Source: Oceanispirochaeta sp.
GTDB taxonomy: Bacteria > Spirochaetota > Spirochaetia > DSM-2461
DNA: 64,000 nucleotides
Direction of reading: 5' to 3'
Assembly: GCA_963663385.2 (NCBI GenBank)
Contig: CAXXXD010000003.1
Location: 544,001 to 608,000 of the forward strand
The notes below the pieces were generated by a model that worked only from the letters and a program-made list of their open reading frames with translations, was not told the origin of the DNA and searched no databases. The translations under genes were made by a program, and so were the position numbers. Below are positions 29,164 through 55,207 of the stretch, piece after piece. Position 1 is the stretch's first letter. Each line of letters opens with the position of its first letter.

Positions 29164-30261
29164 TTACTGTGAATCATACAGGCATACACGGTTGCGGCCC
29201 ATGGCCTTAGCCCGGTAGAGGGCAATATCCGCGTTCTTTATCAGATCGTCCAGGAGATTCTCCCTGCTGTATTCGGCTACTCCCACACTTATGGTAAGGT
29301 GAATACCCTTTTCCCAATCCCTGTTCTGTTCAACCTTGAGGCGCATCCTTTCGGCTACCTGCACCCCCTCTGCAAGGGGCAGGTCGTCAAGGAATACAAT
29401 AAACTCTTCCCCCCCGTACCGGGCGAACATATCCGATCCCCTGACTTCGGCAGAGCACAGACCTGTCAGTTTTTTCAGAACCTTGTCGCCCGCATCATGC
29501 CCCCAGGTATCATTTATCATTTTGAAATGATCCAGGTCTATCATGAGAAGGCACATTGTTTCTTCCGGATGCCTTTCCAGACGGATGAATTTTCTGGATA
29601 CAATCTCATTGAAGTAGAGGCGGTTAGGGGCGCCTGTCAGCATATCGTGGCGGGCTTCATGAAAGGCCAGCTCCTGAGATGTTTTCAGGTCGTTCTCCAG
29701 CTTTTTTGCCTCGGAGATATCAAGCAGTGTTGCTACTATCCCGTGAATTTCCCGGCGGTTGTACATATTCTTCAACTGTATCCGGTAATACCGGGACTGA
29801 TAGGCCTCATCCGTCTGCAGGGTAAGATGAAACAGGGTCCCCTTATGATCGATACCGCATTTCTCTATGGTGGAGATAAGCTCCCATTTTGTTTCACCCG
29901 AAAACATATCTTCCAGACGCTCAACTTTAATACAGCCGGAAATACAGTCCAGTATATTCCCCTTCCGGTCAATCAGGAGAATCGTATCATTCGAATTGCT
30001 CATAAGCAGGGCGAATCGTTTTCTTTCGCGAGTAAAGGCAGCGGTGTAGGTGATTATCAGAAGGGTGAAAATTACGGCAAAAAGTATCTGATCAAACTGC
30101 AGGAGAACCGGGTATGAGGGGTCTGTCTCCTCCTGTTCTATTTTAAAGGAGGATTCTCTGCTGCCTGGTGGGGGCAGGTAGGCATTTGCTGCAGTACAGT
30201 AAAACTGCAGGAATAGCATGAGAAAGAAGGTTGCAATTTTTTTTTTCATTTCAGGGGGCAT
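29164..30261 (-). CDS. Membrane-anchored diguanylate cyclase (PAS-like + GGDEF)
   Basis: Motifs DMLTGAPNR and DLDHFKMINDTWGH..GD, with RGSD I-site and GGEEF active site. Confidence 0.92.
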   Translation of the reverse strand: MPPEMKKKIATFFLMLFLQFYCTAANAYLPPPGSRESSFKIEQEETDPSYPVLLQFDQILFAVIFTLLIITYTAAFTRERKRFALLMSNSNDTILLIDRKGNILDCISGCIKVERLEDMFSGETKWELISTIEKCGIDHKGTLFHLTLQTDEAYQSRYYRIQLKNMYNRREIHGIVATLLDISEAKKLENDLKTSQELAFHEARHDMLTGAPNRLYFNEIVSRKFIRLERHPEETMCLLMIDLDHFKMINDTWGHDAGDKVLKKLTGLCSAEVRGSDMFARYGGEEFIVFLDDLPLAEGVQVAERMRLKVEQNRDWEKGIHLTISVGVAEYSRENLLDDLIKNADIALYRAKAMGRNRVCLYDSQ

Positions 30262-30288: not shown

Positions 30289-31248
30289 TTAAGGAATGGT
30301 ATTCCTTAAAATCTCAAACCGGTCATAGGATTCTGTTTTAGCAAGGCAGATAATAGATTCCTTATTATCATTATAAATAATACTGGATTCCCCTTCCCAA
30401 AGCAAATCCAAAAAAACTCCTGTCAGGCAGGCTGTAATGCCATAGGGAATTTCTGTCTGTATCAACCGGGCGGGCAGGGCCCTTGAGAAGAGACTGACCT
30501 GATCTGACGTATAGGCTGTGCCGTTTGCCTTTATATCAATCCAGAGCTCCCCGGTCCGGTTGACCTCCTCCCACTCCCTGAGAAATGTATCCCGGCAGAT
30601 GGTAAGGCGTATATGATGGTCCTTTACCCTGAAGCCGTCTGCATCTTTAATATCTCCCGCGGACAGGCCGAGGATATCTTCTTCGAACTCGGTCAGAAAG
30701 TACTTATACTGGGAGTATAAGACCCGCCCTTCCGGACTGTATACAACCGCCTGATTAAAGACGCCTCTTTTTTCTGTATCATAATAAAAGCGGGTTCCCC
30801 CCAGGATATATACGCTGTATTCCCGGGATAAACTGCCCCATAGGCTATCTAGAAAATCCTCTGTATCGGACGATCCGGAGCTGAAAAGATCCTTAAGGGA
30901 TGTCAGGGCGGGGCGGTCCCGGATTATATCCTGCCAGACCTGCTCAAACGGCTTATCTTCCAGCAGATAGCTGTTCCAGGGAATGAGCGAGGCAAATACG
31001 CCCAGGTATTCCGGAAAGATCAGCAGATCCGCCGGTCCTTCCGCCATAGCCGCTTCTACAGCTTTCCGGACGGCCGATTCATAGGCCCTTTCGGAAAATA
31101 TCATATCCCTGTTCATTTCGAACTGTACGGTTACGGTTGTCAGTTCCTCGCCGGGTGTAAGAGAGTAAAGAGGGAGGAATCCTGACAGGAGTAAAAATAA
31201 AAAAGCTTTCCTCAGGGAGGAGGAAAGCTGTAATAGATAAATGGGCAT
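30289..31248 (-). CDS. Carbon-nitrogen hydrolase (nitrilase superfamily) with a probable signal peptide
   Basis: Catalytic triad motifs IFPEY, QYK and TICRD. Hydrophobic N-terminus. Confidence 0.8.
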   Translation of the reverse strand: MPIYLLQLSSSLRKAFLFLLLSGFLPLYSLTPGEELTTVTVQFEMNRDMIFSERAYESAVRKAVEAAMAEGPADLLIFPEYLGVFASLIPWNSYLLEDKPFEQVWQDIIRDRPALTSLKDLFSSGSSDTEDFLDSLWGSLSREYSVYILGGTRFYYDTEKRGVFNQAVVYSPEGRVLYSQYKYFLTEFEEDILGLSAGDIKDADGFRVKDHHIRLTICRDTFLREWEEVNRTGELWIDIKANGTAYTSDQVSLFSRALPARLIQTEIPYGITACLTGVFLDLLWEGESSIIYNDNKESIICLAKTESYDRFEILRNTIP

Positions 31249-31250
31249 GT

Positions 31251-32363
31251 TTATTCGGGAATTGTGTAAATGGTCTCTTTTTCAATATTGAAGGAGTCGC
31301 CGAAGGTGGGGACAACTTTCGTAACCGTCCTGACCGTTTTCCTGTTATTGGGTTGGATTTCATATCGGATAACCGTTTCCGCCAGTGTTTCGGCGGTGGT
31401 GCTGACTGCCAGATTTGTTCCGAATATCCTGTCCAGAATCATCAGGAGCGCATTACTGCTGCTCTGATTGAATTCTGTCTCCTGCGAAACTATCCTCTCA
31501 TAGGCAAGTGAGGTCCGGTTGGTTTTGCCATTATCTTCTAGGGATTCTGTGTAATATCTTACACCGTAGATTTCCTTTGTCTCTCTGTACCAGTAATCAA
31601 TCCACTCTTCAATCTTCTGATGGTATCTGACTTCACTGCTCCAGTTCATACCAGTTGCAGTGGCAGCGGGGGCATCCTGTATTGTCATATCCCCGTCAAT
31701 AGGAAAATGGTCGTACTGTGTCCCGTCATTGTAGTCGGATGTAATCCATTCATACCGGACGCTGCCGTCCTGGTAGTGAAGCTCCATTGTTTCCCTGGCT
31801 TTGGAATTGTATACCCAGGCTCCGTTCTCTTTTGTCGTTATAGGATCAGCATAAGTCCAGAACCCGTCTCCACCCGTTGGGGTGTCCCCTTCATTCCTGT
31901 CTACATCCAGGATGTAATACTCTTCAAGGTAGTAGTCAAAAATCTCTTCCTTTTTGGGATAATCTGTTTTGGCTGAAATTTTGTAAACGTTAAATGTTCC
32001 GGTATAAGTCATGGGGTTCACAACATCTTGTTCGTAAAGGGTTACCGTATAATAGGTTCTCTGCCCCTGTTCTGGATAGTTATTAACTTTGTTGCCGTAT
32101 TCGCCTTTGCCGATAAGTTTTGTAAAGCTGTAATTGGCTAACTCTTCATCTGTTGTAAGTTCCTTTGTCAACGTATAGGTATTAATCGCTGCTCTATCGT
32201 TTCCTTCGCTGAGGGTCACATCGTCTCCAGCCATCCAGTAGTAACCTGACAGGATATAATCCTGATCCGCATTTGAATCACTGCTGTCAAAACTGCATGA
32301 TGTAATTGAAAAAATTGTGATGAGTATGATTGTTAACAGCGTAATAATGCTTTTATTTGTCAT
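31251..32363 (-). CDS. Hypothetical lipoprotein, Tyr/Thr/acidic-rich
   Basis: MTNK + hydrophobic stretch + ITS-C lipobox. GGAGG RBS. Confidence 0.75.
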   Translation of the reverse strand: MTNKSIITLLTIILITIFSITSCSFDSSDSNADQDYILSGYYWMAGDDVTLSEGNDRAAINTYTLTKELTTDEELANYSFTKLIGKGEYGNKVNNYPEQGQRTYYTVTLYEQDVVNPMTYTGTFNVYKISAKTDYPKKEEIFDYYLEEYYILDVDRNEGDTPTGGDGFWTYADPITTKENGAWVYNSKARETMELHYQDGSVRYEWITSDYNDGTQYDHFPIDGDMTIQDAPAATATGMNWSSEVRYHQKIEEWIDYWYRETKEIYGVRYYTESLEDNGKTNRTSLAYERIVSQETEFNQSSSNALLMILDRIFGTNLAVSTTAETLAETVIRYEIQPNNRKTVRTVTKVVPTFGDSFNIEKETIYTIPE

Positions 32364-32488: not shown

Positions 32489-33910
32489 TTATTTATCAGC
32501 ACCTGTCGTTAAGCGTTGATGCTCTCTGATGTCTTTCAGGCGGTTATCCGTAATGGCCGTAAAGATGATCCGGTCCAGGGATTTGAGGGCCTGAAACAGA
32601 TGGACTGTCATAAGAACCGCACCTACAGAACAGGCCAGAAGGGTTGAAAACCCCGGCGTGGAGAAGAGGGGCAGGTACGGGCTTAATGCCGCGCCCGTCG
32701 TATTAAGCAGGAAAAACAGAAGGACTCCCTGAAGGGCCTTGCCGTACAACTCTATGTAGAATAGAAAATTCATGACTGTCAGAAACAGGCCCAGGACCAT
32801 AATGCTTACAGCCGTAAAGACAACCATGGGAAAAACTTCCCGCATCTCCGGTCTGAACCAGGCTGCTGATAGAAAAATCAGGGTGACACAGCCCTGGAGG
32901 GCCGCCTGCTCCTGCAGTACGAAACGGGTTGTCTTATTCAACTGGTACTGATTGGTTTTGATATGCCTTAAAGGTTTTCTGCCCAGACTGTCCAGAAATT
33001 TTTTCAGAACAAGGAAAAACTCGGTTTCCGAGAATATGGTGAAAAAAACAAGTCCCGGAATCATCATCAGATTGGTCAGGTACACAATGATATCGTAGGT
33101 CTTGTAGAGTTTCATGGACGTATCGGCAATATACTCCCCTTTCAAGCCCCAGAAAATAATTTTATCAATCCAGAGAGCGCCGTAATAGAAGAATCCCGTA
33201 ATAAAAAGAGCCCTGTACCGCTTTATATAACGGATAAAATCGTTAAGAACAGGTACTTTTTTATACCCCATTTCCTTCCGGAGATAGAAGAAAAGGAGCA
33301 GCATCAGAAGGAGCTGCCCCATGGTAAAGGCCATTAGAATATAACCGCTGTCAAACCGTATCATGGCTCCCTTCATAAAAAGGAGGGATGCTGCCATTCC
33401 AGATGAATAGACTATCAGCAGCTGATTGTAACGCTTCATGGCAGAAGCCGTAAGCATCAGAACCCATACATGATTTATAATGGTATATAACAGGATAAAG
33501 GCTGTTTTGTGTACTATTCCGACAGCCGGACCACCCAGAAAGAGTTTCTGAAGTCCAACTGCAACCGGTACAATTATAAACATGGAAGCCAGAAGATACC
33601 GGACTGTTAACCCCATGGCCTTATCCATCTCGTTTCTGTAAAGGTAGTCCGAGAGTATACGGGTAAAGATATAGTGAAAACCGCCGTTGAGTATAAGGGA
33701 TGAGGCATAGATATAGATGGTGGACGAAATAAAAAGGTTCCGTATCTCTACGGGAATCCCGAGAACCGGCTGCTGAAATATCAGAATGGTGATTATTGAG
33801 ATAAGCCAGGGGCCTGCCACAATCATGATCCCCGAAAGGGAAGCCTGAAAGAGGCCCCGGGCGCTTCCCAGGGAGGCAACCTTTCTCAGCTCGAACCCAA
33901 TGCCTGCCAT
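32489..33910 (-). CDS. pelG: Pel exopolysaccharide transporter PelG
   Basis: Signature N-terminus MAGIGFELRK, plus AGPW, FTR..SDYLY, WIDK and ET.FF. Polytopic. Confidence 0.93.
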   Translation of the reverse strand: MAGIGFELRKVASLGSARGLFQASLSGIMIVAGPWLISIITILIFQQPVLGIPVEIRNLFISSTIYIYASSLILNGGFHYIFTRILSDYLYRNEMDKAMGLTVRYLLASMFIIVPVAVGLQKLFLGGPAVGIVHKTAFILLYTIINHVWVLMLTASAMKRYNQLLIVYSSGMAASLLFMKGAMIRFDSGYILMAFTMGQLLLMLLLFFYLRKEMGYKKVPVLNDFIRYIKRYRALFITGFFYYGALWIDKIIFWGLKGEYIADTSMKLYKTYDIIVYLTNLMMIPGLVFFTIFSETEFFLVLKKFLDSLGRKPLRHIKTNQYQLNKTTRFVLQEQAALQGCVTLIFLSAAWFRPEMREVFPMVVFTAVSIMVLGLFLTVMNFLFYIELYGKALQGVLLFFLLNTTGAALSPYLPLFSTPGFSTLLACSVGAVLMTVHLFQALKSLDRIIFTAITDNRLKDIREHQRLTTGADK

Positions 33911-35317
33911 CTACTTTATCTCCATCTGAGCGAGGTTTGTGTACATCTCCCGGTACTTTCTATGCAGGTCTTTTTTATCATAAAAATTGAGCACCTTCTG
34001 AAAATTCTTTTTACCCAGTCTCTGCATCTCTTCGGGATTGTTGTAAACAGTCAGTATGCCATCGGCTATCTTACTGCTGTTTTTTGATGGAGCCAGAAAG
34101 CGTTCATCAAAATTCAGGAGTTCGGGAACATTTCCCACGGCAGTGGATACCGCGGGAATCCCCGAGCAGTAAGCTTCCAGGATTACAAGGGGCTGTGCTT
34201 CCCTCACACTGGTGAGGACAAGAACATCAATAAAACTGTAGTAATCCCTTACATCCTGTCTTCCGGTAAATTCAAATACATCCTGCAGTTTGAGGTTTTC
34301 AACCAGAAGCCGGCAGTCCTCATAGTAGTCCGGGTCTTCATCCGTCGGTCCGATACAGTAGAAACGGGCTTCAGGAACACGGTCCGCGACAATTTTACAG
34401 GCGGCAATATAGGTTTTTATATCCTTGATGGGAACAACCCGTCCGACAAGCCCTACATGAAAACCCGGGCGGGGGCAGCGTTCCAGTTTAAAACGCTCCA
34501 CATCAATCCCGTTAGGGATTACCTCTGTTTTTTCTACGGGAGCCCCCAGTTCAAGCTGTTTCTGCCGGTTTTCTTCAAAAAGGGCCGTAATATGATCGGC
34601 CTGGGTGTAACAGATCCGGCTGATCTTGTTGTAGATGCTGGTCCACATATCCCTCTGGTATCCCCTGACCAGCTGGGTTTTGCGGATTTCCATCTCCCGT
34701 TCCTTGTGATAAAGGCCGTGTTCTGTTAAAAGGAAGGGTTTTTTATGCCTGGAACTGGCTGCCAGGGCTGCCACACCGGCAAAGCCCGTTGATACGGCAT
34801 GATAGATATCCGCTTCGGGAGGAGTGGCTCCCAATACGCTGAACAGCATGTCATGGGAGGACTTCCAGGCCCAGTAGTAGTCGGAAAACGGGTAGAGAGG
34901 GTTGTTTCGGATATTCCCGTTTACTATCATTTTCCAGCCTATCCGGGATTTTACGGCAAGATGATACAGAAAGGTATTTTCCGGTATCATTCTAATCATC
35001 TTTCTTGTATCGGGATCCTTGTTCTCTGCCATAAGCTTATGGAAGCGGGCAATCTCCTTCAGCAGTTTCATCGGCCGGGGGGGAGATTTGAAGATTTTAC
35101 CTGTTGGTTCCCCCAATACGATATCCACGGATTCAATGACATTGGAAGGAAGCTTATAGCGCAGAGGCTGACCGGATTTGGGGGAGATCGTATAGAGTTT
35201 AAAATCCACTTCGGGGATATTTATGATCAGATCGTGTACCCAGGCGGAAACTCCTCCGGTAATGTAGGGGTAGGATCCCTCCAGAACAATACAGACTGTC
35301 ATGCGGCGGTCACTCAT
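33911..35317 (-). CDS. pelF: GT4 glycosyltransferase PelF
   Basis: Motifs EGSYPYITGGVSAW, STGFAG, TEHGLY.KER, GRVVPIKDIKT and S.REAQPLVILEA. Confidence 0.94.
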   Translation of the reverse strand: MSDRRMTVCIVLEGSYPYITGGVSAWVHDLIINIPEVDFKLYTISPKSGQPLRYKLPSNVIESVDIVLGEPTGKIFKSPPRPMKLLKEIARFHKLMAENKDPDTRKMIRMIPENTFLYHLAVKSRIGWKMIVNGNIRNNPLYPFSDYYWAWKSSHDMLFSVLGATPPEADIYHAVSTGFAGVAALAASSRHKKPFLLTEHGLYHKEREMEIRKTQLVRGYQRDMWTSIYNKISRICYTQADHITALFEENRQKQLELGAPVEKTEVIPNGIDVERFKLERCPRPGFHVGLVGRVVPIKDIKTYIAACKIVADRVPEARFYCIGPTDEDPDYYEDCRLLVENLKLQDVFEFTGRQDVRDYYSFIDVLVLTSVREAQPLVILEAYCSGIPAVSTAVGNVPELLNFDERFLAPSKNSSKIADGILTVYNNPEEMQRLGKKNFQKVLNFYDKKDLHRKYREMYTNLAQMEIK

Positions 35318-36128
35318 GTTTTCCAGTCCAGAAATCAAGGGTTTCCTTTTCCAGATCCGTCAGGTCATCCCTGCCTTTCATCTCATTCAAAAGCCTGTTC
35401 AGTTTCCGGGAGTCTCTTTTTTCATAGGCCAGTTCCAGTTTGACAAGGCGGTTTGAGGGCGCATCCGGCAGGAGCTGTTCAGCCTGATCATAGAGTTTCA
35501 GATTAATCAGAACCCGTATCAGCAGGTAGAGGTCCTCATCTGTGCTCACCTGACGGTTTTTCAGCTCCATCAGCAGAAGATAAGCCTCTTTCAGGTAAAA
35601 ATGATAGAGGGTCGTCTCCTTTTTATTGAGGAGCGCCAGGTGGTAGTAAATTTCCGCGGCGGCAGACTGATCTTCACGCTCCGGCTTTGTTTCCTGTTTT
35701 TCATTAAGGGCTACCAAATGCTGGTAAAAACTGCTATGGGATGAGTTATGCCGGGGGGCCGAATCCTGTTTTGCCGCCATCTTCTCTTTCAGGGCTACCA
35801 GCCGGGAGTTGTACTGTTTCTCCATGGCATTCAGGCTTTCCGCGGCAAACAGGGCCACTTCCTTGTCCTTATACTGGGAAATCTCCGTCAGAACTTCACT
35901 GAGCAGCAGGTTGGTTTCCAGATCCCTGTCCTTCCGGGACAGGAGCCACTCAATCTCGTCAAGATTATAGGGCTTCTTCATTATGGGATTCAGCCCGGTA
36001 GATTTATAGATAAACGCTTCAATGGGAAGCACATCTTCAAGGATCGCCTGCAGGGCTGCCGTAGGGGTTCTCGGTATGAACATGGTATTCAGTTTTTCAA
36101 TGTATCTGTAGGGGGAATCCTTTTTCAT
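35310..36128 (-). CDS. pelE: PelE-like HEAT/TPR protein (no obvious TM segment)
   Basis: Sits between pelD and pelF. Contains a D.EVALFAAESLNAMEK repeat-like motif and TPR-like helices. Confidence 0.6.
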   Translation of the reverse strand: MKKDSPYRYIEKLNTMFIPRTPTAALQAILEDVLPIEAFIYKSTGLNPIMKKPYNLDEIEWLLSRKDRDLETNLLLSEVLTEISQYKDKEVALFAAESLNAMEKQYNSRLVALKEKMAAKQDSAPRHNSSHSSFYQHLVALNEKQETKPEREDQSAAAEIYYHLALLNKKETTLYHFYLKEAYLLLMELKNRQVSTDEDLYLLIRVLINLKLYDQAEQLLPDAPSNRLVKLELAYEKRDSRKLNRLLNEMKGRDDLTDLEKETLDFWTGKHE

Positions 36129-37516
36129 AACTTCTGGATCTCCAGCAGGTATTCCGCTCTTTTAATCAAGTCATCCGGGTCCATTTTTTCACTGGTACTA
36201 CAGGAGGAGTATCCCAGATTTATCTCAAGGTTGAGAGATTCCCCTTTTATGGTCCAGGTTCTGTTGTTTATGTATTCCAGGCTTTCCAGGCAGAACAGGG
36301 AACACCCGTCATAATCGAGGTAGGGAATAAAAAGGGCTACCCGGGATTCCTCCCTGTAGTGAAAAAGCTCCGGTTTACTCTTGCTGCGGGATGCCAGTTC
36401 TTCCATCAGCTGCCCCTGAAGGAACTGTACTTCCTCCAGGCTGTATTGTTCGACCAGATCCCGGAAGTTCTGGAATTCAAGAAGGATCAGGCTGGAGGAG
36501 TTGAAGGTTCCCGATTCATTATATTTATACCCTTCCATAACCCTGTACAGCTGAGTGAACTGGGGAAGACCTGTATATTCGTTCTCTTCTTCTTCAGAAA
36601 GGAGAGACTCGAAATCCAGAGCCCGTTTAAGGGCAGGCTGGGCGAGGCTTATAATAATCTGAACCATGTTTTCCGTATAGCTGCTGTATTTGATAAAAGG
36701 CAGAGACTCCAGGTTGATGACTCCCCAGGTTCTGTTATCCAGAACAACCGGGCAGCATATGATGCTGTCCTCAGTATTCAGTTGAGCCAGTGAATCGTAG
36801 TTCATTGCCATCCGGATGGAAAACATCTGATTATTACGGAAAACCCATCCTTCAATTGTCTCCTTAAGATCGAGCACATCTCCTTTATTGTTTTCCGTCT
36901 CTTCCCCTTTGCGCATTTTCAGCTTCAGATTGCTTTTCTGGCTGTCGAAGATCCATAGGGATATACTTGTTGCTTCCGTAAAATGTACAATTGTATCCAG
37001 CAGGGTAGAGATACTTTTATTTGTATCCAGGCAGTCCACTTCCTGAATCCGGTCGTACATCAGGTTCAGCGACGATCTTTGACGGACTACGCGTTCTTCC
37101 AGTTCCCTGATTATATCGTGCTGGGAGAGAGTGACATCCTTCAGCTTGCTTTTTTCGCCTGATATTTTTCTGTATCGGGTCAGTATCTTGTCAATCTGAT
37201 AGAGACGGAACTGGTTAAGCGATCCCCCCAGATAGGAGAGAACAATTCCCGTGGTGCCGTTGACAAGAAGCCGTCCTGTTTCGGGTAAATCTTTGTGTAA
37301 CAGGATAAAACCCGCCACATTTAGGGAAAAAGCCGTAAAAAAACAGATCAGCCCGGAAACTCTTCCATGCCAGAAGGCCAGAAAAAGAGACGTTATCAAT
37401 ATAAGTGTTACCGGCTCGGGTAAATAACTTTCCACTACGGGAATATGGGTCGACACGCCGATAATGAGAGCTATTACTATACTTTCCGGAATAATGTTGC
37501 GTTTTTTCAGTTGCAT
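36125..37516 (-). CDS. pelD: PelD-like protein: TM helices, coiled coil, GAF and degenerate GGDEF
   Basis: N-terminal TMs, a GAF domain (GWVFRN..., IICCPV...WGVIN) and GGDEF scaffold remnants (YTGLP, LLEFQNF, INLG, DDLIKRA) without a GGDEF motif. First gene of the operon. Confidence 0.75.
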   Translation of the reverse strand: MQLKKRNIIPESIVIALIIGVSTHIPVVESYLPEPVTLILITSLFLAFWHGRVSGLICFFTAFSLNVAGFILLHKDLPETGRLLVNGTTGIVLSYLGGSLNQFRLYQIDKILTRYRKISGEKSKLKDVTLSQHDIIRELEERVVRQRSSLNLMYDRIQEVDCLDTNKSISTLLDTIVHFTEATSISLWIFDSQKSNLKLKMRKGEETENNKGDVLDLKETIEGWVFRNNQMFSIRMAMNYDSLAQLNTEDSIICCPVVLDNRTWGVINLESLPFIKYSSYTENMVQIIISLAQPALKRALDFESLLSEEEENEYTGLPQFTQLYRVMEGYKYNESGTFNSSSLILLEFQNFRDLVEQYSLEEVQFLQGQLMEELASRSKSKPELFHYREESRVALFIPYLDYDGCSLFCLESLEYINNRTWTIKGESLNLEINLGYSSCSTSEKMDPDDLIKRAEYLLEIQKL

Positions 37517-37577
37517 AACGGGTTTTAGATTATAATGTAAAATGTCACTATTGTATATATTTGTCTGGAGAATAACG

Positions 37578-40500
37578 ATGCAGAGAACAATCAGAAGGAA
37601 CAGGTTTCTTATTGCAGGAATCCTGTTTTTTTATATATTACTTTTTTCATCAGCTCTTACAGCTCAGGAAAACACGGAGGAGCAGGATGCTGAAGCCCTC
37701 CCGGAAGTTCCCGAGGTAAAGCTGACACCCATTTTTCCCGATTCGGAGGAAGGGCTGATCTATATAGAAGGGGAAGATGCTGTTTCAACCAACTTCGCTA
37801 CGGCTCCCATCTATAACTATGGGGCTTCCGCCTATCGTTCCCTGCAGCTGATTCAGCAGAATGCCCCCTACGGGGGGAAATCCTACTATGCGGAGTATGC
37901 TTTTTATGTGGAAGAGGAGGGGGAGTACTACTTCTGGTACGGTGGAACCCCTCCCGGGCCGAAAGAGGATGTATTCCCCTCCTATGCCAGCCCTTTCAAA
38001 TATATTCTGGATGATGGGGAAGCTGTTCCCGTATACAGAGAGGACCTCTCGGTCGTAGATGCCTACACGCCCTCCTATTACTGGATGGAAGTGGGGAAGA
38101 TCACCCTGACCGAAGGAGTACATAAGCTTCGCCTGGAAGTTTCGGATAAACGGCGCTACGACGGGCAGTACTACTTTTTTATGGATGCTTTCTTCTTTCT
38201 GCGGGAAGACCTGATGGAAGAAGAACTTGTTCTGGTTCCGGACGTTTTCCCGAAAAACCGTCTGGACCGCTCCCTGGACAACCCTTTTCAGTCCATTGCC
38301 TTCTATGAAGGCAGGATCAAGGAAGACCCGGGCAACAAGGACGCCTATATTGTGGTTTCCATGATCTACTCCCTCCTGGGAGACTATATAAATGCCATAA
38401 AAAATCTTAACAGTGCGGTTAACTTGGATCCGGAGGATTCCTATCCTCTTCTGCTGATGGCTAAAAACAGAATCTGGAATGGAGAGGTTACAGCCGGACT
38501 GACACTTTATAAACAGCTGGTTATCCTTGCCCCGGATAATGCCGCTTACTGGGCCGAGGCGGGTAAAGTTGCCGCCTGGACAGGCAACTATCGCGATTCC
38601 ATCGATTTTTTTACAAGGGGACTGGATAAGTTTCCCGAGGATCTGAACCTGAAGGTAAACCTGGGGCTTACCTATCTCTGGATGTCCCGGTCGGGAGAGG
38701 CCGAGACTGCTTTTTCCGAAGCTGAAGAGAGTTCGGCGGGGAACCATGAACGGGCAATGGAACTGGGAAATATTCACTCCCTGAACGGTTATCCCCAGTA
38801 TGCCGTGGAAATCTATAAAAAAGAGATTGCCCAGTCTCCGGAGTATCTGGAAACCTACCTCAATCTGGAGAAGGCCTACAGGGATACCGGGGAGAGGGAT
38901 AAGGCGGAAGAGCTGATCTCCCTGATCTACGACAGCTTTGAAGAGAGCAGCGCTTTTTCATCCTATATGAATGTTTATGAAGAGAAGCTTCAGATGAAAC
39001 AGGATATTCTGGACGGCTACCGCATAGCACTGGATGAGAACCCCGATAACATCAATCTCAGGCAGGAACTGGCCCAAACCTATTTCTGGAACGGACTAAA
39101 GGAAGAAGCTGTTGATGAATCCCTGCGTATTCTGGTTAATAAAATGTTCCATGTGTTTAAGGATTTTGACAGCAAAGCGGAAAAGCTGCTAACCCTGAGG
39201 GATAAACTCTCCTACACGATGGAACGTTACCATAGGATTATGGACTCCTGCGGAGATGCTTCAAAACAGTTAAGCAGCGCCCAGTCCGCTTATAAAAAGG
39301 CAGAAGCGGCTGTTCAGAAAAAGCCCGGAGATACGGAACTGGCAGCCAAAATGGATGAACAGTATCTGATTTATGCGGATGCCTATAATATGGCTCAGGT
39401 ATGGATAGACCGCCTTGCAGAGCAGGAAACCGTACTGGAGGACCTTAAAGACAACTGGGAATCTCTCTCTTCTGCCGAAGAGGAGGACGAAGAACTGTTC
39501 CGGCAGCTTATGGGTGATCTGGAGTGGTCCTGGGACAGGAGCTTCACCAAAATGGAACTTAGGCAGGTTCAGAGGGACGAGCCCTTTCTCGCCGGCTATA
39601 TACTGGGGCGTCTGGCCCTTTTCGAAGGTCGGATGGAAGAAGCTGCCCGGGTTCTTTCTTCCGATACATTTGAAGATTCTCCCTTTGCCCGGTACGGCTT
39701 GTATGAAGCCCTTCTCTGGCAGAACAATGAAAAAAAACAGGATGAAATGTGGGCCGGCGAAGCGGATGTCCTGACACTCTACCGGCAGCATCTTTTCGAT
39801 CTGGAGGCAACAGCCTGGAGCGAACCGGGTTCGGGCTCTTTCCTTCCTGATGATGATGAGGTAGCGAGTCTGACCGGATTTATGAATCAGCGGATTAAAG
39901 AGTTCAGTACGGACCGGGAAGAACTGGATAAGCTGGCGGGGAAAATCGGTAAAGCCATAGACAGAAAACTCAACCGCAGTATTTACTACCTGGAGCAGGA
40001 AACCTATATGCTCCGGTTCGAACTGGGGGATTACTATCTGGAAATGGAAGAGAACCTGAAAGCATCCCGTCAGTTTGACAGGGTTCTGGCTATGGATCCC
40101 TGGAATATAAGCGCCAATTACAAACTGGGGATAGTCAGTCAGCGCTACGGCAACTGGTACAGGGCCATGAATCAGTACGAGAAGGTCTACTTTCAGAACC
40201 CTCTCTACGAAAACGCCGCCTATTACTACAATCAGCTGGCCCGGGCGAATGCGGATTATGTTCATATAACAGCTCAGAATGTTACGGATCCCTCCCGTAT
40301 CGCCTATACGGGAACAGCCGAGTACAACAGTAAAGTGAACAACTGGCTGGGGTGGGGGCTCGACTATCAGCTGGATATTGACCGGCAGTACAGAACCTAC
40401 GGGAGCGAAGACCCCTCATCCTTCAAGCTTCATACGGCTGTGTTTGATCTTCCTCTGCGGCTGTCGGACTGGAATCTGCAGCTTACCCCCTTCGGGGGTG

Positions 40501-41276
40501 TGCAGGTGAGCAATGCCTTTTTTGGTTCGGATTACGGATTCAATCCCTACAAACCGGTTTCTGTCGAGGATAACCTGATCGCCCTGACATCCTCCTTTAC
40601 GGGAGGACTCGGACTCGACTGGACCTATGATTTTCTGGCTGTCGATATGGAGTATAGATACGCCCTGGAGGAGGATTCCCTCTTCTACGGCAGAAACCTG
40701 ACAAACGGGCATGGGGTGCAGCTCAATGCCAGTACCTACTTCCCCATACAATCCGATGACAATATCGGACCGGTAACAACAAGGACATTCGGATCCCTGA
40801 AAATCCTGCAGAGCGAAGATGTTTCCGGTACTAATCAGATCCGTCAGGTTGTGCAGGAGGTTGCCGCGGGGTATCTGGTTTCCCGGAATCCTTCCTTCAG
40901 ACTGACCCTGAACGGTCAGTTCAACTATGAGGACAGTCTGGATACGGATGTAACGGATTACTATGCACCTGATGAGGTCTATGAAGTAAAAGGAGGGCTG
41001 AGGGGAACTCTCGGTGTGCATAATGCCCAGTACACGGAAAGCGCCGAGATCAGCCTTTGGGGCAGCGCCGGAAGTTACCGGAGCGCCGGCGGGGATCCCG
41101 CTTTAAAGGTGGAGGGACAGTTAAGCGCCTACTATGTGAAAGAGACCATGATGCTCTATCTCCTTATAGGCGGGTACGGCACATATGATGAAGGGCTGGC
41201 AGATGATCCCATGTTCTGGGAACTGTCTGCTACCCTGGGATGCAAGGTAAACGTACCGTCCCTTCTGGTTCCCTAG
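37578..41276 (+). CDS. Large exported TPR protein with a putative N-terminal CBM-like domain and C-terminal beta-barrel (PelB/PgaA/BcsC-like)
   Basis: Sec signal peptide, many TPR motifs (LDPED, APDNA, DPWN) and a last ~340 aa of alternating aromatic beta-strands. GGAG RBS precedes ATG 37578. Confidence 0.7.
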   Translation: MQRTIRRNRFLIAGILFFYILLFSSALTAQENTEEQDAEALPEVPEVKLTPIFPDSEEGLIYIEGEDAVSTNFATAPIYNYGASAYRSLQLIQQNAPYGGKSYYAEYAFYVEEEGEYYFWYGGTPPGPKEDVFPSYASPFKYILDDGEAVPVYREDLSVVDAYTPSYYWMEVGKITLTEGVHKLRLEVSDKRRYDGQYYFFMDAFFFLREDLMEEELVLVPDVFPKNRLDRSLDNPFQSIAFYEGRIKEDPGNKDAYIVVSMIYSLLGDYINAIKNLNSAVNLDPEDSYPLLLMAKNRIWNGEVTAGLTLYKQLVILAPDNAAYWAEAGKVAAWTGNYRDSIDFFTRGLDKFPEDLNLKVNLGLTYLWMSRSGEAETAFSEAEESSAGNHERAMELGNIHSLNGYPQYAVEIYKKEIAQSPEYLETYLNLEKAYRDTGERDKAEELISLIYDSFEESSAFSSYMNVYEEKLQMKQDILDGYRIALDENPDNINLRQELAQTYFWNGLKEEAVDESLRILVNKMFHVFKDFDSKAEKLLTLRDKLSYTMERYHRIMDSCGDASKQLSSAQSAYKKAEAAVQKKPGDTELAAKMDEQYLIYADAYNMAQVWIDRLAEQETVLEDLKDNWESLSSAEEEDEELFRQLMGDLEWSWDRSFTKMELRQVQRDEPFLAGYILGRLALFEGRMEEAARVLSSDTFEDSPFARYGLYEALLWQNNEKKQDEMWAGEADVLTLYRQHLFDLEATAWSEPGSGSFLPDDDEVASLTGFMNQRIKEFSTDREELDKLAGKIGKAIDRKLNRSIYYLEQETYMLRFELGDYYLEMEENLKASRQFDRVLAMDPWNISANYKLGIVSQRYGNWYRAMNQYEKVYFQNPLYENAAYYYNQLARANADYVHITAQNVTDPSRIAYTGTAEYNSKVNNWLGWGLDYQLDIDRQYRTYGSEDPSSFKLHTAVFDLPLRLSDWNLQLTPFGGVQVSNAFFGSDYGFNPYKPVSVEDNLIALTSSFTGGLGLDWTYDFLAVDMEYRYALEEDSLFYGRNLTNGHGVQLNASTYFPIQSDDNIGPVTTRTFGSLKILQSEDVSGTNQIRQVVQEVAAGYLVSRNPSFRLTLNGQFNYEDSLDTDVTDYYAPDEVYEVKGGLRGTLGVHNAQYTESAEISLWGSAGSYRSAGGDPALKVEGQLSAYYVKETMMLYLLIGGYGTYDEGLADDPMFWELSATLGCKVNVPSLLVP

Positions 41277-41372
41277 ACCCCTCTCAGTCTCCCAACAGGA
41301 AAGCCTTTTATTCTACGAAGGAAGAGTCAGTACTCTTCGCCCTCTCCTGAGGAGAGGGCCGGGGAGAGGTCT
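41276..41372. repeat. REP-like composite palindromic element
   Basis: GACCCCTCTCAGTCTCCC ... GCCCTCTCC-tga-GGAGAGGGC-cggggagaggtc, between convergent genes. Confidence 0.65.
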
Positions 41373-42225
41373 AAGCGATTCTGAACAGGCTTTTACACTC
41401 CTGGAAAAGAGGATCCTTCTGAAGATCTATCATGAAACGTTCCTGAAAATAGTGCAGGTTGTTCAGGGTTAATCCGCTGTAGAGCAGAAAAGGTTTTAGG
41501 ACCGTCTGAACTTCTTCGGAGAATTCAAACTCGTGGAGAGTGGTTGTCAATATATCAGAAATAGATATAAGAACAATTAGTTCTTTATGGGGAGACTGGA
41601 TATTGCTGTTGCCGTGTTCTCCGGCCACATCGGCATAGATGCTGGGGAAATTCCAGCTTTCCATGATTTTCCGTCCCACACTCAGATGGTCTGCTCCATA
41701 AATTCTGATTTCCTCTTTGCAGGTGAGCCTTTCGTTGAGGTTCATAAATTCCATAACGCCATCATAGTTGCCGGGTTTTGACTCATAAAGGGCAAGCTGT
41801 CCGATATCATGGAGGAGTCCGGCCAGGAAAACTTCTTCCTTCCAGCGGGACTGTCCTGCAATATCCGAAAGTTTCCTGGCAATAAAAGCCGTTATAAGGG
41901 AGTGCTGCCAGAAATATTTGTAAAAGGGCGTTACCGTATTCTTCTGAAACATATTGGAGGCTGTAATCAGCATCACAAGGCTTTTGATCGCTTTAAATCC
42001 CATCAGGGAAATGGCTGTCTGCAATTTTGTTATCTGCTGCTGTCTGGCATACAGAGCCGAATTGGCAACCTTCAGTATTTTTGCTGTAAGACCCGGATCA
42101 AGGCTTATCAGATCCTCCAGCTCCGAAAATGAAACATCTCCCAGATCTTCTGCATAAGTCAGTATCTTGGTCGCCACATCAGGCATTATGGGGATATTCT
42201 TTAGAAATTTGTCATAATTATCCAT
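41371..42225 (-). CDS. HDOD domain protein
   Basis: Motifs DPGLTAKILKVANS, AISLMG, FWQHS, AGLLHDIG and GADH..G. Confidence 0.92.
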   Translation of the reverse strand: MDNYDKFLKNIPIMPDVATKILTYAEDLGDVSFSELEDLISLDPGLTAKILKVANSALYARQQQITKLQTAISLMGFKAIKSLVMLITASNMFQKNTVTPFYKYFWQHSLITAFIARKLSDIAGQSRWKEEVFLAGLLHDIGQLALYESKPGNYDGVMEFMNLNERLTCKEEIRIYGADHLSVGRKIMESWNFPSIYADVAGEHGNSNIQSPHKELIVLISISDILTTTLHEFEFSEEVQTVLKPFLLYSGLTLNNLHYFQERFMIDLQKDPLFQECKSLFRIA

Positions 42226-43715: not shown

Positions 43716-44945
43716 ATGCAGGGAAGACTGAATAAAATTCTGCAGATTGACCAGGATCTGAACCGGATCCAGGATGTGGATATGCTGCTGGAGAGGATAC
43801 TGTATTACGCCAGGCAGGCTGTTTCTGCGGATGCCGGATCGATATATATCAAGGATGGGAATGAGCTTGAAATCCGCCACTCCCAGAATGATACCCTCCA
43901 GAAAAAGCTGGCCCCCGGAAAGAAGCTGATCTATTCTATTTTCCGGATTCCCATAAATGAAAAATCCATCTCCGGATTTGTGGCAGACAGGGAGACCCAT
44001 CTGAATATACCGGATATGTACAATATCCCCGAAAGCTGTCCCTACAGTTTCAGCACCCATTATGATGAGGTATCAGGATACAAAACCGTTTCTTCTCTTA
44101 CCTTCCCCCTTAAAACAAATCAGGGAGAGCTGCTGGGAGTTCTTCAGCTGCTGAATGCCAAAGGGAAAAACGGGAAAATCGTTCCCTTTATGAAAGAGGA
44201 TGAACCTTTTGTCCTTCATTTCGCCAGTTCGGCTACTGTGGCCCTGCAGCGGACCCGTATGACCCGAACTCTCCTGCTGAGGATGATACAGATGGCAGGA
44301 CTCCGGGATCCCAAGGAGACGGGAGCCCATGTTAACCGGGTGGGAGCTATCTCCTGTGAAATCTATGAGGCCTGGGCTGTAAAGAATAAAGTACCGGAAG
44401 AACAGATTCAGAAAGAGAAGGATATCCTCCGTATGGCATCCATGCTCCATGATGTGGGTAAGGTGGGGATTTCCGATCTGATTTTGAAAAAGCCCGCCCG
44501 TTTTACCGACGAAGAATACTATATCATGCAGTCTCATTCCTATATCGGAGCCAGGCTTTTCGATAACAAGCAGTCCGATCTGGATATTATCGCCAGGGAT
44601 ATTGCCCTGCGGCATCATGAAAACTGGGATGGCACGGGATACCCGGGGAAAATTCCCTGGCATGAATATGACTCTCTGGAGGAAACAATCGGCAGCGCAT
44701 CGGAAAAACCGGAAGGCCTAAAGGGCGGGGAAATCCCTTTTTTTGCCAGGATTGTCGCTCTGGCGGATGTTTATGACGCCCTCTCTTCCAAAAGGGTCTA
44801 TAAAGAGGCCTGGACAGAAGATGATGTTCTTAACGAGATCCGCCGCTGCAGAGGAACGAAGTTCGACCCCGAGCTGGTGGATATATTCTTTGAAATTGTT
44901 CCCATGCTGCACCATATTCAGGAAAAATATCCGGATAGTGAGTAG
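43716..44945 (+). CDS. GAF + HD-GYP cyclic-dinucleotide phosphodiesterase
   Basis: GAF domain followed by ETGAHV.R, LHDVGK, HHENWDGTGYP and ADVYDAL. Confidence 0.92.
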   Translation: MQGRLNKILQIDQDLNRIQDVDMLLERILYYARQAVSADAGSIYIKDGNELEIRHSQNDTLQKKLAPGKKLIYSIFRIPINEKSISGFVADRETHLNIPDMYNIPESCPYSFSTHYDEVSGYKTVSSLTFPLKTNQGELLGVLQLLNAKGKNGKIVPFMKEDEPFVLHFASSATVALQRTRMTRTLLLRMIQMAGLRDPKETGAHVNRVGAISCEIYEAWAVKNKVPEEQIQKEKDILRMASMLHDVGKVGISDLILKKPARFTDEEYYIMQSHSYIGARLFDNKQSDLDIIARDIALRHHENWDGTGYPGKIPWHEYDSLEETIGSASEKPEGLKGGEIPFFARIVALADVYDALSSKRVYKEAWTEDDVLNEIRRCRGTKFDPELVDIFFEIVPMLHHIQEKYPDSE

Positions 44946-53337: not shown

Positions 53338-55143
53338 CTACTGACTGATGATTTTAAGGAAGATATCCAGGAGTTCCGGATCAAACAGTTTTCCTCTCTG
53401 TTCTTTGAGAAAGTCCAGTGTTTCTTCTATGCTGAAACCTTGTCGATAGGGCCTGTCTTCGGTAATGGCATCAAAAACGTCGGCTATGGTGACAATCCGG
53501 GCGGGCAGGGGGATCTGTTCGCCTGCCAGACCTTCCGGGTATCCTGTACCGTCCCATCTTTCATGATGGTATTTGACTATCTGGCGGATTACGGAAAAGT
53601 CCGGAACATCTTTTAAAATATCGTAGCCCTTGCCGGGATGGCTTTTGATTATACTGAATTCCGCATCAGTCAACCTACCCGGTTTATCAAGGATGCTTTC
53701 GGGTACACCCATCTTCCCTATATCATGAAGCATGGCTCCCATATGAATGCCTGACTTCATTTCGTCGGATATATCCATCTTTTCGGTTATGATATCGGCG
53801 ACTTCCGCCACCCGGTCGCTGTGACCGGCGGTCCATCGGGATTTGGCATCCACGCTTCTGATGAGAGACCGGTAGAGAGCATTGTAGAGAGACTCCCTCC
53901 GTTTCATATCATGGAGACTCTTCAGGGCGACCCCTGTCTGATCCGAGAGCATTCCCAGGGCTTCCCTGTCCTGATTGCTGAAGGTCTTCCGGGAAATGGC
54001 AAATATGCCGACGAAAGTTTCATCCTGAAAGAGGGGGACACTTAAAACTTTTTTACAGGCCTTATCCGTCAGGATCATGACGGCAGGAGTATCCTCCCCA
54101 ATGGAAAATTCAAATGGAACTTCCATATTCTGAAGGAGCCTGTCCGGCACGTTTTCCATTTTGATTATGTGGTTTTCTATTTCACGTTCAGCCGGGGCAG
54201 CCGCTATTATATGAAAAGCTTCCTCCACTTTTTCCAGAACCGTAACAGGGGCCTGATCAAACTGATCGGATATAAGACCGGCCACCTTGTACAGAAGTTC
54301 CCTGCGGGATACCGACGAGAGTACAGTCCTGTCAATTCTGTTCATGGTCTGCATGGATTTTATTCGATGATCAATATTGGCCGCCATTTCGTCCATAGTG
54401 CGGGACAAAAGCCCTATGTCGTCCCGCCTCCTGCTGTTCATGCGGGTATCGAAATGACCGGAAGCCATGGAAAAGGCTGTATCAGCCATCTGCTTGATAG
54501 GCCTGGACAACCGGGAAGCAAAAAAAGAACCGAGAAAGGTAGAGAGGATCAGAACAACAATTCCATAAACCATAATGGTATCTTTTTCACTAGTAATATA
54601 GTTAAAAATACTGCCCTGCTTCTGAAGCATCTGAATAACATAGTCGTTATCATCCTCTCTGGAGGTAATGTCCAGAAGTATGCTTCTTTTATTCTCCTGT
54701 CCCAGAAAAAGCTGTTTTTCTATATATATGCCTTCTGACAGACTCCTGTTCAGGGATTCAACCTGTTTTTCATTCGGAAGGATCATGCCTGCGAATGATC
54801 TCTCGGAGGAGGCGAGCATCACCCAGTCTTCCTCTCCGTCTTTCTTCATAAAAAGATTAAGCTGAAAATCCAGAGACTGTTCATTCGGTATTATGGTTAT
54901 GATCTGTTCCAACAGCTTTGCGCCGATTTCGGGTTTTTCGATAAAAGCGTTGTAGAGCCAGTCCTTTTCGTAGTGGGATTCATGAAAAAGCTTTTCAATT
55001 CCACTGCGGAATTCCCTGATAACTTCCATGCTGGTAAGCAGGGTTCCTGAAATAAAGGATATATACCCTATAATCATCCCGAAAACGACAAAGAGAAGTG
55101 TCTGCTTAAGATGGAGCAGCTTGGAACCTAAACGAAAAGTCAT
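53338..55143 (-). CDS. Membrane sensor HAMP-GAF-HD-GYP phosphodiesterase
   Basis: Two TMs, HAMP (LSRPIKQM...DDIGLL), GAF, TAGHS, LHDIGK and HHERWDGTGYP. Start position uncertain. Confidence 0.9.
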   Translation of the reverse strand: MTFRLGSKLLHLKQTLLFVVFGMIIGYISFISGTLLTSMEVIREFRSGIEKLFHESHYEKDWLYNAFIEKPEIGAKLLEQIITIIPNEQSLDFQLNLFMKKDGEEDWVMLASSERSFAGMILPNEKQVESLNRSLSEGIYIEKQLFLGQENKRSILLDITSREDDNDYVIQMLQKQGSIFNYITSEKDTIMVYGIVVLILSTFLGSFFASRLSRPIKQMADTAFSMASGHFDTRMNSRRRDDIGLLSRTMDEMAANIDHRIKSMQTMNRIDRTVLSSVSRRELLYKVAGLISDQFDQAPVTVLEKVEEAFHIIAAAPAEREIENHIIKMENVPDRLLQNMEVPFEFSIGEDTPAVMILTDKACKKVLSVPLFQDETFVGIFAISRKTFSNQDREALGMLSDQTGVALKSLHDMKRRESLYNALYRSLIRSVDAKSRWTAGHSDRVAEVADIITEKMDISDEMKSGIHMGAMLHDIGKMGVPESILDKPGRLTDAEFSIIKSHPGKGYDILKDVPDFSVIRQIVKYHHERWDGTGYPEGLAGEQIPLPARIVTIADVFDAITEDRPYRQGFSIEETLDFLKEQRGKLFDPELLDIFLKIISQ

Positions 55144-55207
55144 ATATAAAAAAGTAACTATTTCAGAGTAGGGAATCAAGGAACATGCAGTGAATTTTAC
55201 TTGAACT

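Follow-up and report, generated by a model that had tools for sequence, protein, structure and literature searches.

The locus considered here lies within a window of 64,000 nucleotides of DNA from a free-living spirochaete, Oceanispirochaeta sp. (assembly GCA_963663385.2, contig CAXXXD010000003.1, positions 544,001 to 608,000; all coordinates below are those of the window). It comprises four consecutive genes of a Pel-type polysaccharide synthase (pelD, pelE, pelF and pelG), a divergently oriented giant gene encoding a predicted outer-membrane exporter, and two partner genes encoding a lipoprotein of no known family and a stand-alone HDOD protein. The locus is best read, with fair though not high confidence, as a variant of the Pel synthase-dependent secretion system that is specific to spirochaetes and has long been inherited among them; its product is probably, by analogy with the known systems, a polymer of N-acetylgalactosamine (GalNAc). 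The initial annotation had set the limits of the system at 32489..41276, which proved too narrow, as the lipoprotein gene on one side and the HDOD gene on the other also belong to it:

31251..32363, minus strand: lipoprotein of no known family, 370 amino acids, with Cys23, assigned by its co-occurrence with pelG
32489..33910, minus strand: pelG, inner-membrane exporter subunit, 473 amino acids (PF16933)
33911..35317, minus strand: pelF, glycosyltransferase of family GT4, 468 amino acids from the ATG at 35317 (NF038011 and DUF3492)
35310..36128, minus strand: pelE-like gene, helical protein of 272 amino acids without membrane helices, assigned by hhalign and profile comparison
36125..37516, minus strand: pelD-like gene, 463 amino acids, with membrane helices, a coiled coil, a GAF domain and a degenerate GGDEF domain devoid of RxxD
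37578..41276, plus strand: giant gene, predicted outer-membrane exporter of 1232 amino acids, with a signal peptide, a CBM35-like domain (about 37746-38216), tetratricopeptide repeats (TPRs), a helical stalk, further TPRs and a 16-strand barrel (about 40254-41255)
41371..42225, minus strand: stand-alone HDOD protein, 284 amino acids, candidate regulator (PF08668, 160 bits)

The Pel-type reading of the initial annotation holds, since both PelF and PelG, whose signatures it had recognized, pass curated cut-offs. PelG matches PF16933 with 235 bits against a cut-off of 29, covering profile positions 1-452 of 452, and PelF matches NF038011 with 336 bits against a cut-off of 100, together with DUF3492; the motifs GRVVPIKD and EAQPLVILE are shared with annotated PelF proteins. 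By analogy with the known synthases, PelF would quite probably polymerize a UDP-N-acetylhexosamine (UDP-HexNAc), most likely UDP-GalNAc, into an α-1,4-linked chain that PelD, PelE and PelG would pass through the inner membrane. A GalE-type epimerase is encoded elsewhere in the genome.

A PelDEFG-like core might also make a different product, e.g., a polymer of another HexNAc or of a hexose, or a periplasmic or sheath glycan, with no biofilm matrix involved. Such a product would agree with the identity of just 28-37% between this PelF and annotated PelF proteins from outside the phylum, with an exporter barrel nearer to PgaA than to PelB, and with PelA and PelC not being found in the genome by tblastn. 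It is nevertheless very improbable in view of the wide margin by which the NF038011 cut-off is exceeded, of the outer-membrane pore, which implies export, and of the many loci of the same PelF clade that carry DUF2194 and GH114 genes. GH114 enzymes are active on α-1,4-linked GalNAc or galactosamine (GalN). DUF2194 proteins are active on the same α-1,4-linked GalNAc or GalN in the studied systems, as reported in PMC13254593.

The two remaining core proteins, PelD and PelE, are on sequence comparison real but divergent. The GAF and GGDEF regions of the PelD-like protein match solved structures, the spirochaete PelD profile matches all five control PelD proteins, and some family members are already labelled PelD by automatic annotation; PF16963 (PelD GGDEF) finds no match in this genome, but none in the control PelD proteins either. 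With hhalign, the PelE-like protein pairs at 96% with the protein that occupies the PelE position in a Gram-positive-type locus, and the family profile matches three of five control PelE proteins. A simple hydropathy scan detects no membrane helix in this protein (peak 1.13), and 62 of the 67 family members stay below 1.6, the other five being marginal, whereas all five control PelE proteins exceed this value. The PelE of this genome (35310-36128) also contains an insertion of about 28 residues that does not occur in 19 aligned relatives. The altered regulation proposed by the initial annotation is supported by the RxxD site of PelD, at which cyclic diguanylate (c-di-GMP) is bound in known systems: it is absent from 81 of 81 distinct family sequences (from 92 matching loci, after removal of duplicates and of rows gapped at the motif column) and present in five of five controls. 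Other conserved arginines, R142, R227 and R235, are retained.

The giant gene had been taken for a TPR/barrel protein, and the predicted structure bears this out. The AlphaFold2 model of residues 45-1244, built from 101 sequences, reaches a predicted local distance difference test (pLDDT) score of 91.5, and comparison with 48,161 solved chains places four polysaccharide export pores at the top: PgaA (4y25, Z 26.7, root-mean-square deviation (rmsd) 2.3 over 279 residues), BcsC twice (Z 23.3 and 22.6) and PelB (9h80, Z 22.3), the next match falling to 17.2. Within the same whole-protein search the N-terminal domain matches CBM35 (3zm8, Z 12.4, rmsd 2.6 over 123 residues); this domain has no Pfam match, and its Atlas neighbours are CBM35 and CBM6 clusters (0.91-0.93). 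Foldseek, run with the whole giant, returns for the most part TPR proteins of a generic kind, BcsC ranking 15th. The giant-family profile does not match two annotated PelB proteins, and control PelB queries have no tblastn match in the genome. The export module is divergent, as had been suspected, with a barrel fold nearer to PgaA than to PelB and no sequence match to the two PelB proteins; as modelled, the giant functions in the manner of PelB, PgaA or BcsC, yet by sequence it is no PelB. In the proposed route, the CBM35-like domain would catch the chain, the TPRs and the stalk would guide it and the PgaA-like barrel would release it, and on the strength of the model the giant alone would very probably take the chain across the periplasm and the outer membrane, without a PelC ring.

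Among 7990 candidates scored in a search with the giant, 112 proteins were retrieved at E ≤ 1e-10, 108 of which form a single family, after which the scores drop to generic TPR proteins; every organism name shown is that of a spirochaete. The closest named homologues (57-63% identical) are labelled Oceanispirochaeta or Spirochaetales, in line with the spirochaete host that the initial annotation had suspected. A scan of species genomes confirmed 117 giant-gene loci, the best 80 of which were kept for neighbourhood counts, and 78 of these are titled spirochaete and two only "bacterium". Within 10 kb of the giant in these 80 loci, PelD occurs in 61, PelF in 58, HDOD in 42, DUF2194-type proteins in 25, the lipoprotein in 21 and GH114 in six, many of the loci without PelD being short contigs. 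PelG is found above its cut-off in 77 of 301 genomes of the class and, in a sample of 401 genomes from the whole phylum, in 22. In other classes the exporter is longer (1630-1740 amino acids), PelD is of the same type and the HDOD gene stands beside pelG.

The neighbourhood survey in Spirochaetota, a check proposed with the initial annotation, shows that the module is widespread. In a quick PelF tree of 90 rows, with seven outgroup rows on long branches, the 77 rows of this type form one spirochaete clade (Shimodaira-Hasegawa-like approximate likelihood ratio test 100), apart from the outgroup and from two other spirochaete PelF types, and spanning several classes. A recent horizontal arrival of the locus was rejected, because its guanine plus cytosine content matches that of the window, its flanks are common across the genus and the PelF clade extends over several classes.

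Other arrangements occur among the surveyed loci. Families f7 and f21 instead possess a pel operon of the Gram-positive type, in which DUF2194 is present and PelE is anchored in the membrane (L044:2247-9960, L047:5722-13302), and their PelF groups with Cetobacterium. Family f46 (L138, L143, L152, L153) has pelDEFG and HDOD genes with no exporter gene within 20 kb, and family f102 (L195, L196, L197, L213) represents a further pel-like type, in which the PelD-like genes are short and PelF is 22-33% identical to that of the window. In other classes, a second pelF-pelG pair, divergent and unaccompanied by pelD or pelE (L139, L141, L146, L147, L154), adjoins a weaker HDOD gene and a gene for a 770-residue protein, often near the main locus, and forms its own PelF clade. 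Immediately in front of the long-form exporter, six loci of other classes (L140:8881-10011 and kin) contain a conserved gene of 370 amino acids with a lipoprotein-like start, the product of which might be an N-terminal part split off from the exporter or a stand-in for PelC.

With respect to the organization of the locus, the close coupling of the four pel genes was verified on the sequence itself. As the initial annotation had stated, pelD and pelE overlap by ATGA, pelE and pelF overlap by 8 bp (provided that PelF starts at the ATG at 35317), pelF and pelG abut with a 0-bp gap, and 61 bp separate the head-to-head start codons of pelD (37516) and of the giant gene (37578). The latter ATG is preceded by GGAG and gives a product of 1232 amino acids, the length of the nearest homologue (91% identical); an alternative ATG upstream, at 37542, would shrink the gap to 25 bp. 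Since the same block is present in 10 of 10 same-genus genomes and PelD lies near the giant in most of the 80 loci counted above, the arrangement is not due to chance. The head-to-head layout as a defining trait was discarded: it is common, but other lineages place the giant gene in line after pelG.

The HDOD gene takes varied positions and strands in its 42 giant-gene loci, including a position directly upstream of pelD; it stands beside pel genes in other classes too and tracks pelG across many families even when unlinked. At E ≤ 1e-85, a cut picked after the scores were seen, the subfamily is present in 63 of the 301 class genomes, 60 of them with pelG (against the base rate of 77 in 301), and at a looser E of 1e-50 pelG accompanies 61 of 71 carriers. 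The best solved match is the Geobacter protein 3HC1 (E 9e-34), with which the metal ligands align: of 52 sequences, 48-52 retain H108, H139, D140, H180 and H204, and 39 retain D224, so that the two-metal site, judged from the alignment, is largely intact. The second His of the HH pair is mostly replaced, and the ALYARQ motif of the subfamily is absent from the two other HDOD genes of the genome. From the linkage and the loss of RxxD we infer that the HDOD protein regulates the synthase. C-di-GMP would not switch PelD at RxxD, and the co-inherited HDOD protein is tentatively proposed, with a little less than even confidence, as the likely switch; it would act on the synthase from the cytoplasmic side, once its metal site has sensed or cleaved a nucleotide. 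A complex prediction with the cytoplasmic region of PelD (residues 30-361 of alignment A8) scored 0.00, which speaks neither for nor against binding.

The second partner, the lipoprotein, has no Pfam or NCBIfam match and 133 relatives among 1.84 billion representatives. Its model (pLDDT 91) is a curved β-meander for which Foldseek returns nothing at E 0.001, VIA gives a best Z of 8.4, to small porins, and the Atlas holds matches below 0.9 only, a missing match being no proof of a new fold; PelC is not among the fold matches listed for this model. The lipoprotein is present in 36 of the 301 class genomes, belonging to 15 families, and 35 of the 36 also contain pelG, which it follows across many families even when unlinked. 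Its distribution alternates with that of the DUF2194 (CE26) deacetylase: the 77 pelG genomes comprise 32 with the lipoprotein only, 30 with DUF2194 only, three with both and 12 with neither. DUF2194 was found in two of 30 genomes chosen for the lipoprotein, in both cases unlinked, and the lipoprotein in none of 33 genomes chosen for a linked DUF2194. In the present genome (98.1% complete), no DUF2194 deacetylase was detected with PF09960, PF10096, a spirochaete DUF2194 query or a 26-protein profile.

About half of the carriers would, on this pattern, have their polymer finished by a DUF2194 deacetylase of the Gram-positive type. In the present lineage the lipoprotein takes its place, most likely as a polymer-binding anchor or chaperone for an acetylated, neutral chain, a role to which we give an even chance. 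The lipoprotein might otherwise be an enzyme that replaces the deacetylase, either a de-N-acetylase of new fold or another modifier, in which case the product would be cationic Pel or a differently modified polymer. The near-complete alternation with DUF2194 would be explained in this way, as would the charged and aromatic residues at least 90% kept over 128 sequences (numbered from the Cys: E125 and R168, both invariant, Y74, Y127, D151, R181, Y225, R247, Y249 and E267). Twelve of 26 aligned members have a C-terminal extension, and both of those scanned match the lectin-like LamG domain (PF13385). These fusions count for the preferred reading as well, the association of a catalytic domain with LamG being a common enzyme layout. 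Deacetylation is also reported as essential in both studied systems (PMC13254593). An enzymatic role is nevertheless unlikely, as the invariant and near-invariant columns contain no conserved histidine and hence no metal site of the carbohydrate esterase (CE) type, no enzyme matches the fold, and a sister family of the lipoprotein coexists with the deacetylase.

Charge was considered as a clue to a cationic polymer and found uninformative: the exporter barrels are acidic with and without a deacetylase (means -17.5 and -13.6, respectively), and the acidity of the linked lipoprotein is unremarkable, 24% of the 55 lipoprotein-like proteins of the genome being at least as acidic. Two same-genus genomes contain a tandem duplication of the lipoprotein gene (L027:3579-5788, L028:14186-16453), and in L036 the gene is split over two frames.

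Additional features of the window adjoin the locus or lie inside it:

29164..30261, minus strand: membrane diguanylate cyclase (RYGGEEF; PF00990, 147 bits), of doubtful membership
30289..31248, minus strand: nitrilase-fold protein, encoded 2 bp downstream of the lipoprotein gene, of doubtful membership
37529..37536, no strand: palindrome ATTATAAT, candidate shared promoter in the 61-bp gap, with a -10-like hexamer on both strands

The nitrilase-fold product matches CN-hydrolase structures, with E80, K182 and C218 invariant, and its gene is confined to the loci of this genus and their duplicates (12 of 103 loci); the cyclase has close matches in three of the 80 giant-gene loci and is likewise linked only within this genus. 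Both were therefore rejected as general parts of the system. The palindrome ATTATAAT is the joint best minus-strand site of a promoter scan (10/12), and in 10 of 10 same-genus loci ATTATA or AGTATA is found equally far from the start of pelD; as the scan overall did not exceed chance (22 sites against 17.3 ± 4.2 expected), the shared promoter is only a lead. Two genes for phosphodiesterases of the GAF or HAMP plus HD-GYP type are located near the locus (43716-44945 and 53338-55179), the former being syntenic within the genus only.

These neighbours bear on the possibility of an ordinary Pel system with scattered parts, in which c-di-GMP would bind PelD at a site other than RxxD, a CE4 or nitrilase-fold enzyme would perform the deacetylation, and the HDOD protein and the lipoprotein would be accessory. 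No tblastn match was obtained in the genome at E 1e-3 with two annotated PelA proteins, nor with three PelC-position proteins, PelC being short and divergent and a profile search not having been used for it; a lone GH114 gene lies 184 kb from the locus, and GGDEF genes are numerous. A scattered arrangement would agree with four PF01522 genes in the genome, with the conserved arginines of PelD, with the cyclase and nitrilase-fold genes that adjoin the locus in this genus, and with an unlinked, stand-alone, lipoprotein-type DUF2194 found 35-39 kb from pelG in two of 10 same-genus genomes (L131:9902-11950, L132:8462-10441), though not in this one. It is nonetheless improbable, because the cyclase and nitrilase-fold linkage is confined to one genus, whereas the HDOD protein and the lipoprotein track pelG across families, and because the loss of RxxD throughout the PelD family fits a changed function better than drift.

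Several observations weigh against the preferred reading of a long-inherited spirochaete variant with dedicated partners. In view of R142, R227 and R235 and of the adjoining cyclase in this genus, c-di-GMP could bind PelD elsewhere, and the four unlinked CE4 (PF01522) genes or the linked nitrilase-fold protein could account for deacetylation. The HDOD subfamily is absent from 17 of the 77 pelG genomes (nine with a Gram-positive-type operon and three with another type), and three of its 63 carriers lack pelG; moreover, the HDOD protein SadB of Pseudomonas aeruginosa is described in PMC12075610 as a proteolysis adaptor without ligand. Four full-length giant loci (L062, L098, L105, L126) have no pelD, nor any other pel gene, within 10 kb; three of them have an HDOD gene nearby, and a 971-residue TPR gene stands close to the giant in at least L098. 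The lipoprotein label changes only three times on the PelF tree, so that the genomes are far from independent and the Fisher p of 1e-8 overstates the alternation with DUF2194. Finally, the distant sister family of the lipoprotein (hhalign 98.5%), which fills six of the 12 genomes with neither protein, coexists with the deacetylase in 13 of 20 carriers; the swap therefore holds for the family of the window lipoprotein only, and a strict swap across the whole superfamily was rejected.

Pel has been described among the most mechanistically conserved biofilm polymers, and c-di-GMP binding by PelD, deacetylation and, in diderms, the PelC ring are treated as essential. The spirochaete system appears to dispense with all three and, given its abundance in environmental spirochaetes (77 of 301 genomes), offers a natural test of which of the Pel rules apply generally. 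Two orphan families, the stand-alone HDOD subfamily and the lipoprotein family without a fold match, are also connected by it with a pathway that has a readable output, the function of the HDOD domain being largely open and the pel linkage providing it with a pathway context. A bolder, rather doubtful possibility is a third type of Pel machine, in which the HDOD metal-site protein would replace the c-di-GMP switch of PelD, possibly through another nucleotide, and in half of the lineages a new-fold lipoprotein would replace the supposedly essential deacetylase, either by modifying the polysaccharide as an enzyme of a new class or by anchoring a neutral, Pel-like polymer.

No description of a spirochaete Pel system or of a link between HDOD and Pel was found in the full-text literature, subscription journals lying outside the search and a mention within a tree figure being possible; in the available parts of the 2020 operon survey (PMC7112194), spirochaete names appear in the list of input genomes only and not in the tables of predicted operons. 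The system is a real, widespread and apparently undescribed variant of a known one. At its core it is Pel; what is new is the loss of the c-di-GMP site from PelD, an HDOD protein dedicated to the system, an exporter of PgaA-like fold that bears a CBM35-like domain, and a branch that has a lipoprotein of its own and no deacetylase of this kind. Most unusual are the two partners, HDOD protein and lipoprotein, and the lack of a PelA-type deacetylase.

Compared with the pelABCDEFG system of P. aeruginosa, the locus shows the same pelD-E-F-G order and coupling, the same PelF and PelG families, the same membrane-GAF-GGDEF layout of PelD and an exporter built, like PelB, from TPRs and a 16-strand barrel. 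It differs by the lack of a PelA or PelC detectable by tblastn, by a PelD without RxxD and a PelE without membrane helices, by the additional HDOD and lipoprotein partners, and by an exporter that has no sequence match to PelB, contains an extra CBM35-like domain and is nearer to PgaA in fold. The pelDEA(DA)FG type of Bacillus cereus is approached in other respects, as the spirochaete PelD profile scores best on a Gram-positive-type PelD (Cetobacterium, 111 bits) and sister spirochaete loci use a DUF2194 deacetylase and a separate GH114; in contrast, the spirochaete system has an outer-membrane exporter, and the present lineage lacks both DUF2194 and RxxD, the latter being reported as necessary in B. 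cereus both for biofilm and for the binding of c-di-GMP (PMC7112168). The streptococcal systems with a class IV PelD, as presented in PMC7890745, resemble it in that Pel control apparently bypasses the RxxD of PelD and accessory genes are proposed as regulators; however, the streptococci have lost the whole GGDEF domain and have no c-di-GMP enzymes, whereas in the spirochaete system the domain is kept and conserved, GGDEF genes are numerous in the present genome and the partner is an HDOD protein.

PgaA and BcsC, the exporters of poly-N-acetylglucosamine and cellulose, respectively, likewise combine TPRs with a 16-strand barrel and work without a lipoprotein ring; the giant is 10-11% identical to them, is associated with a GT4 PelF synthase instead of a GT2 enzyme, and has a CBM35-like domain at its N-terminus as well as a long stalk of helices. 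Similarly, the HDOD partner shares its fold with the HDOD proteins Geobacter 3HC1, MmoQ and SadB, but belongs to a distinct subfamily, distinguished by the ALYARQ motif, by the frequent replacement of the second His of the HH pair and by its tie to the pel genes.

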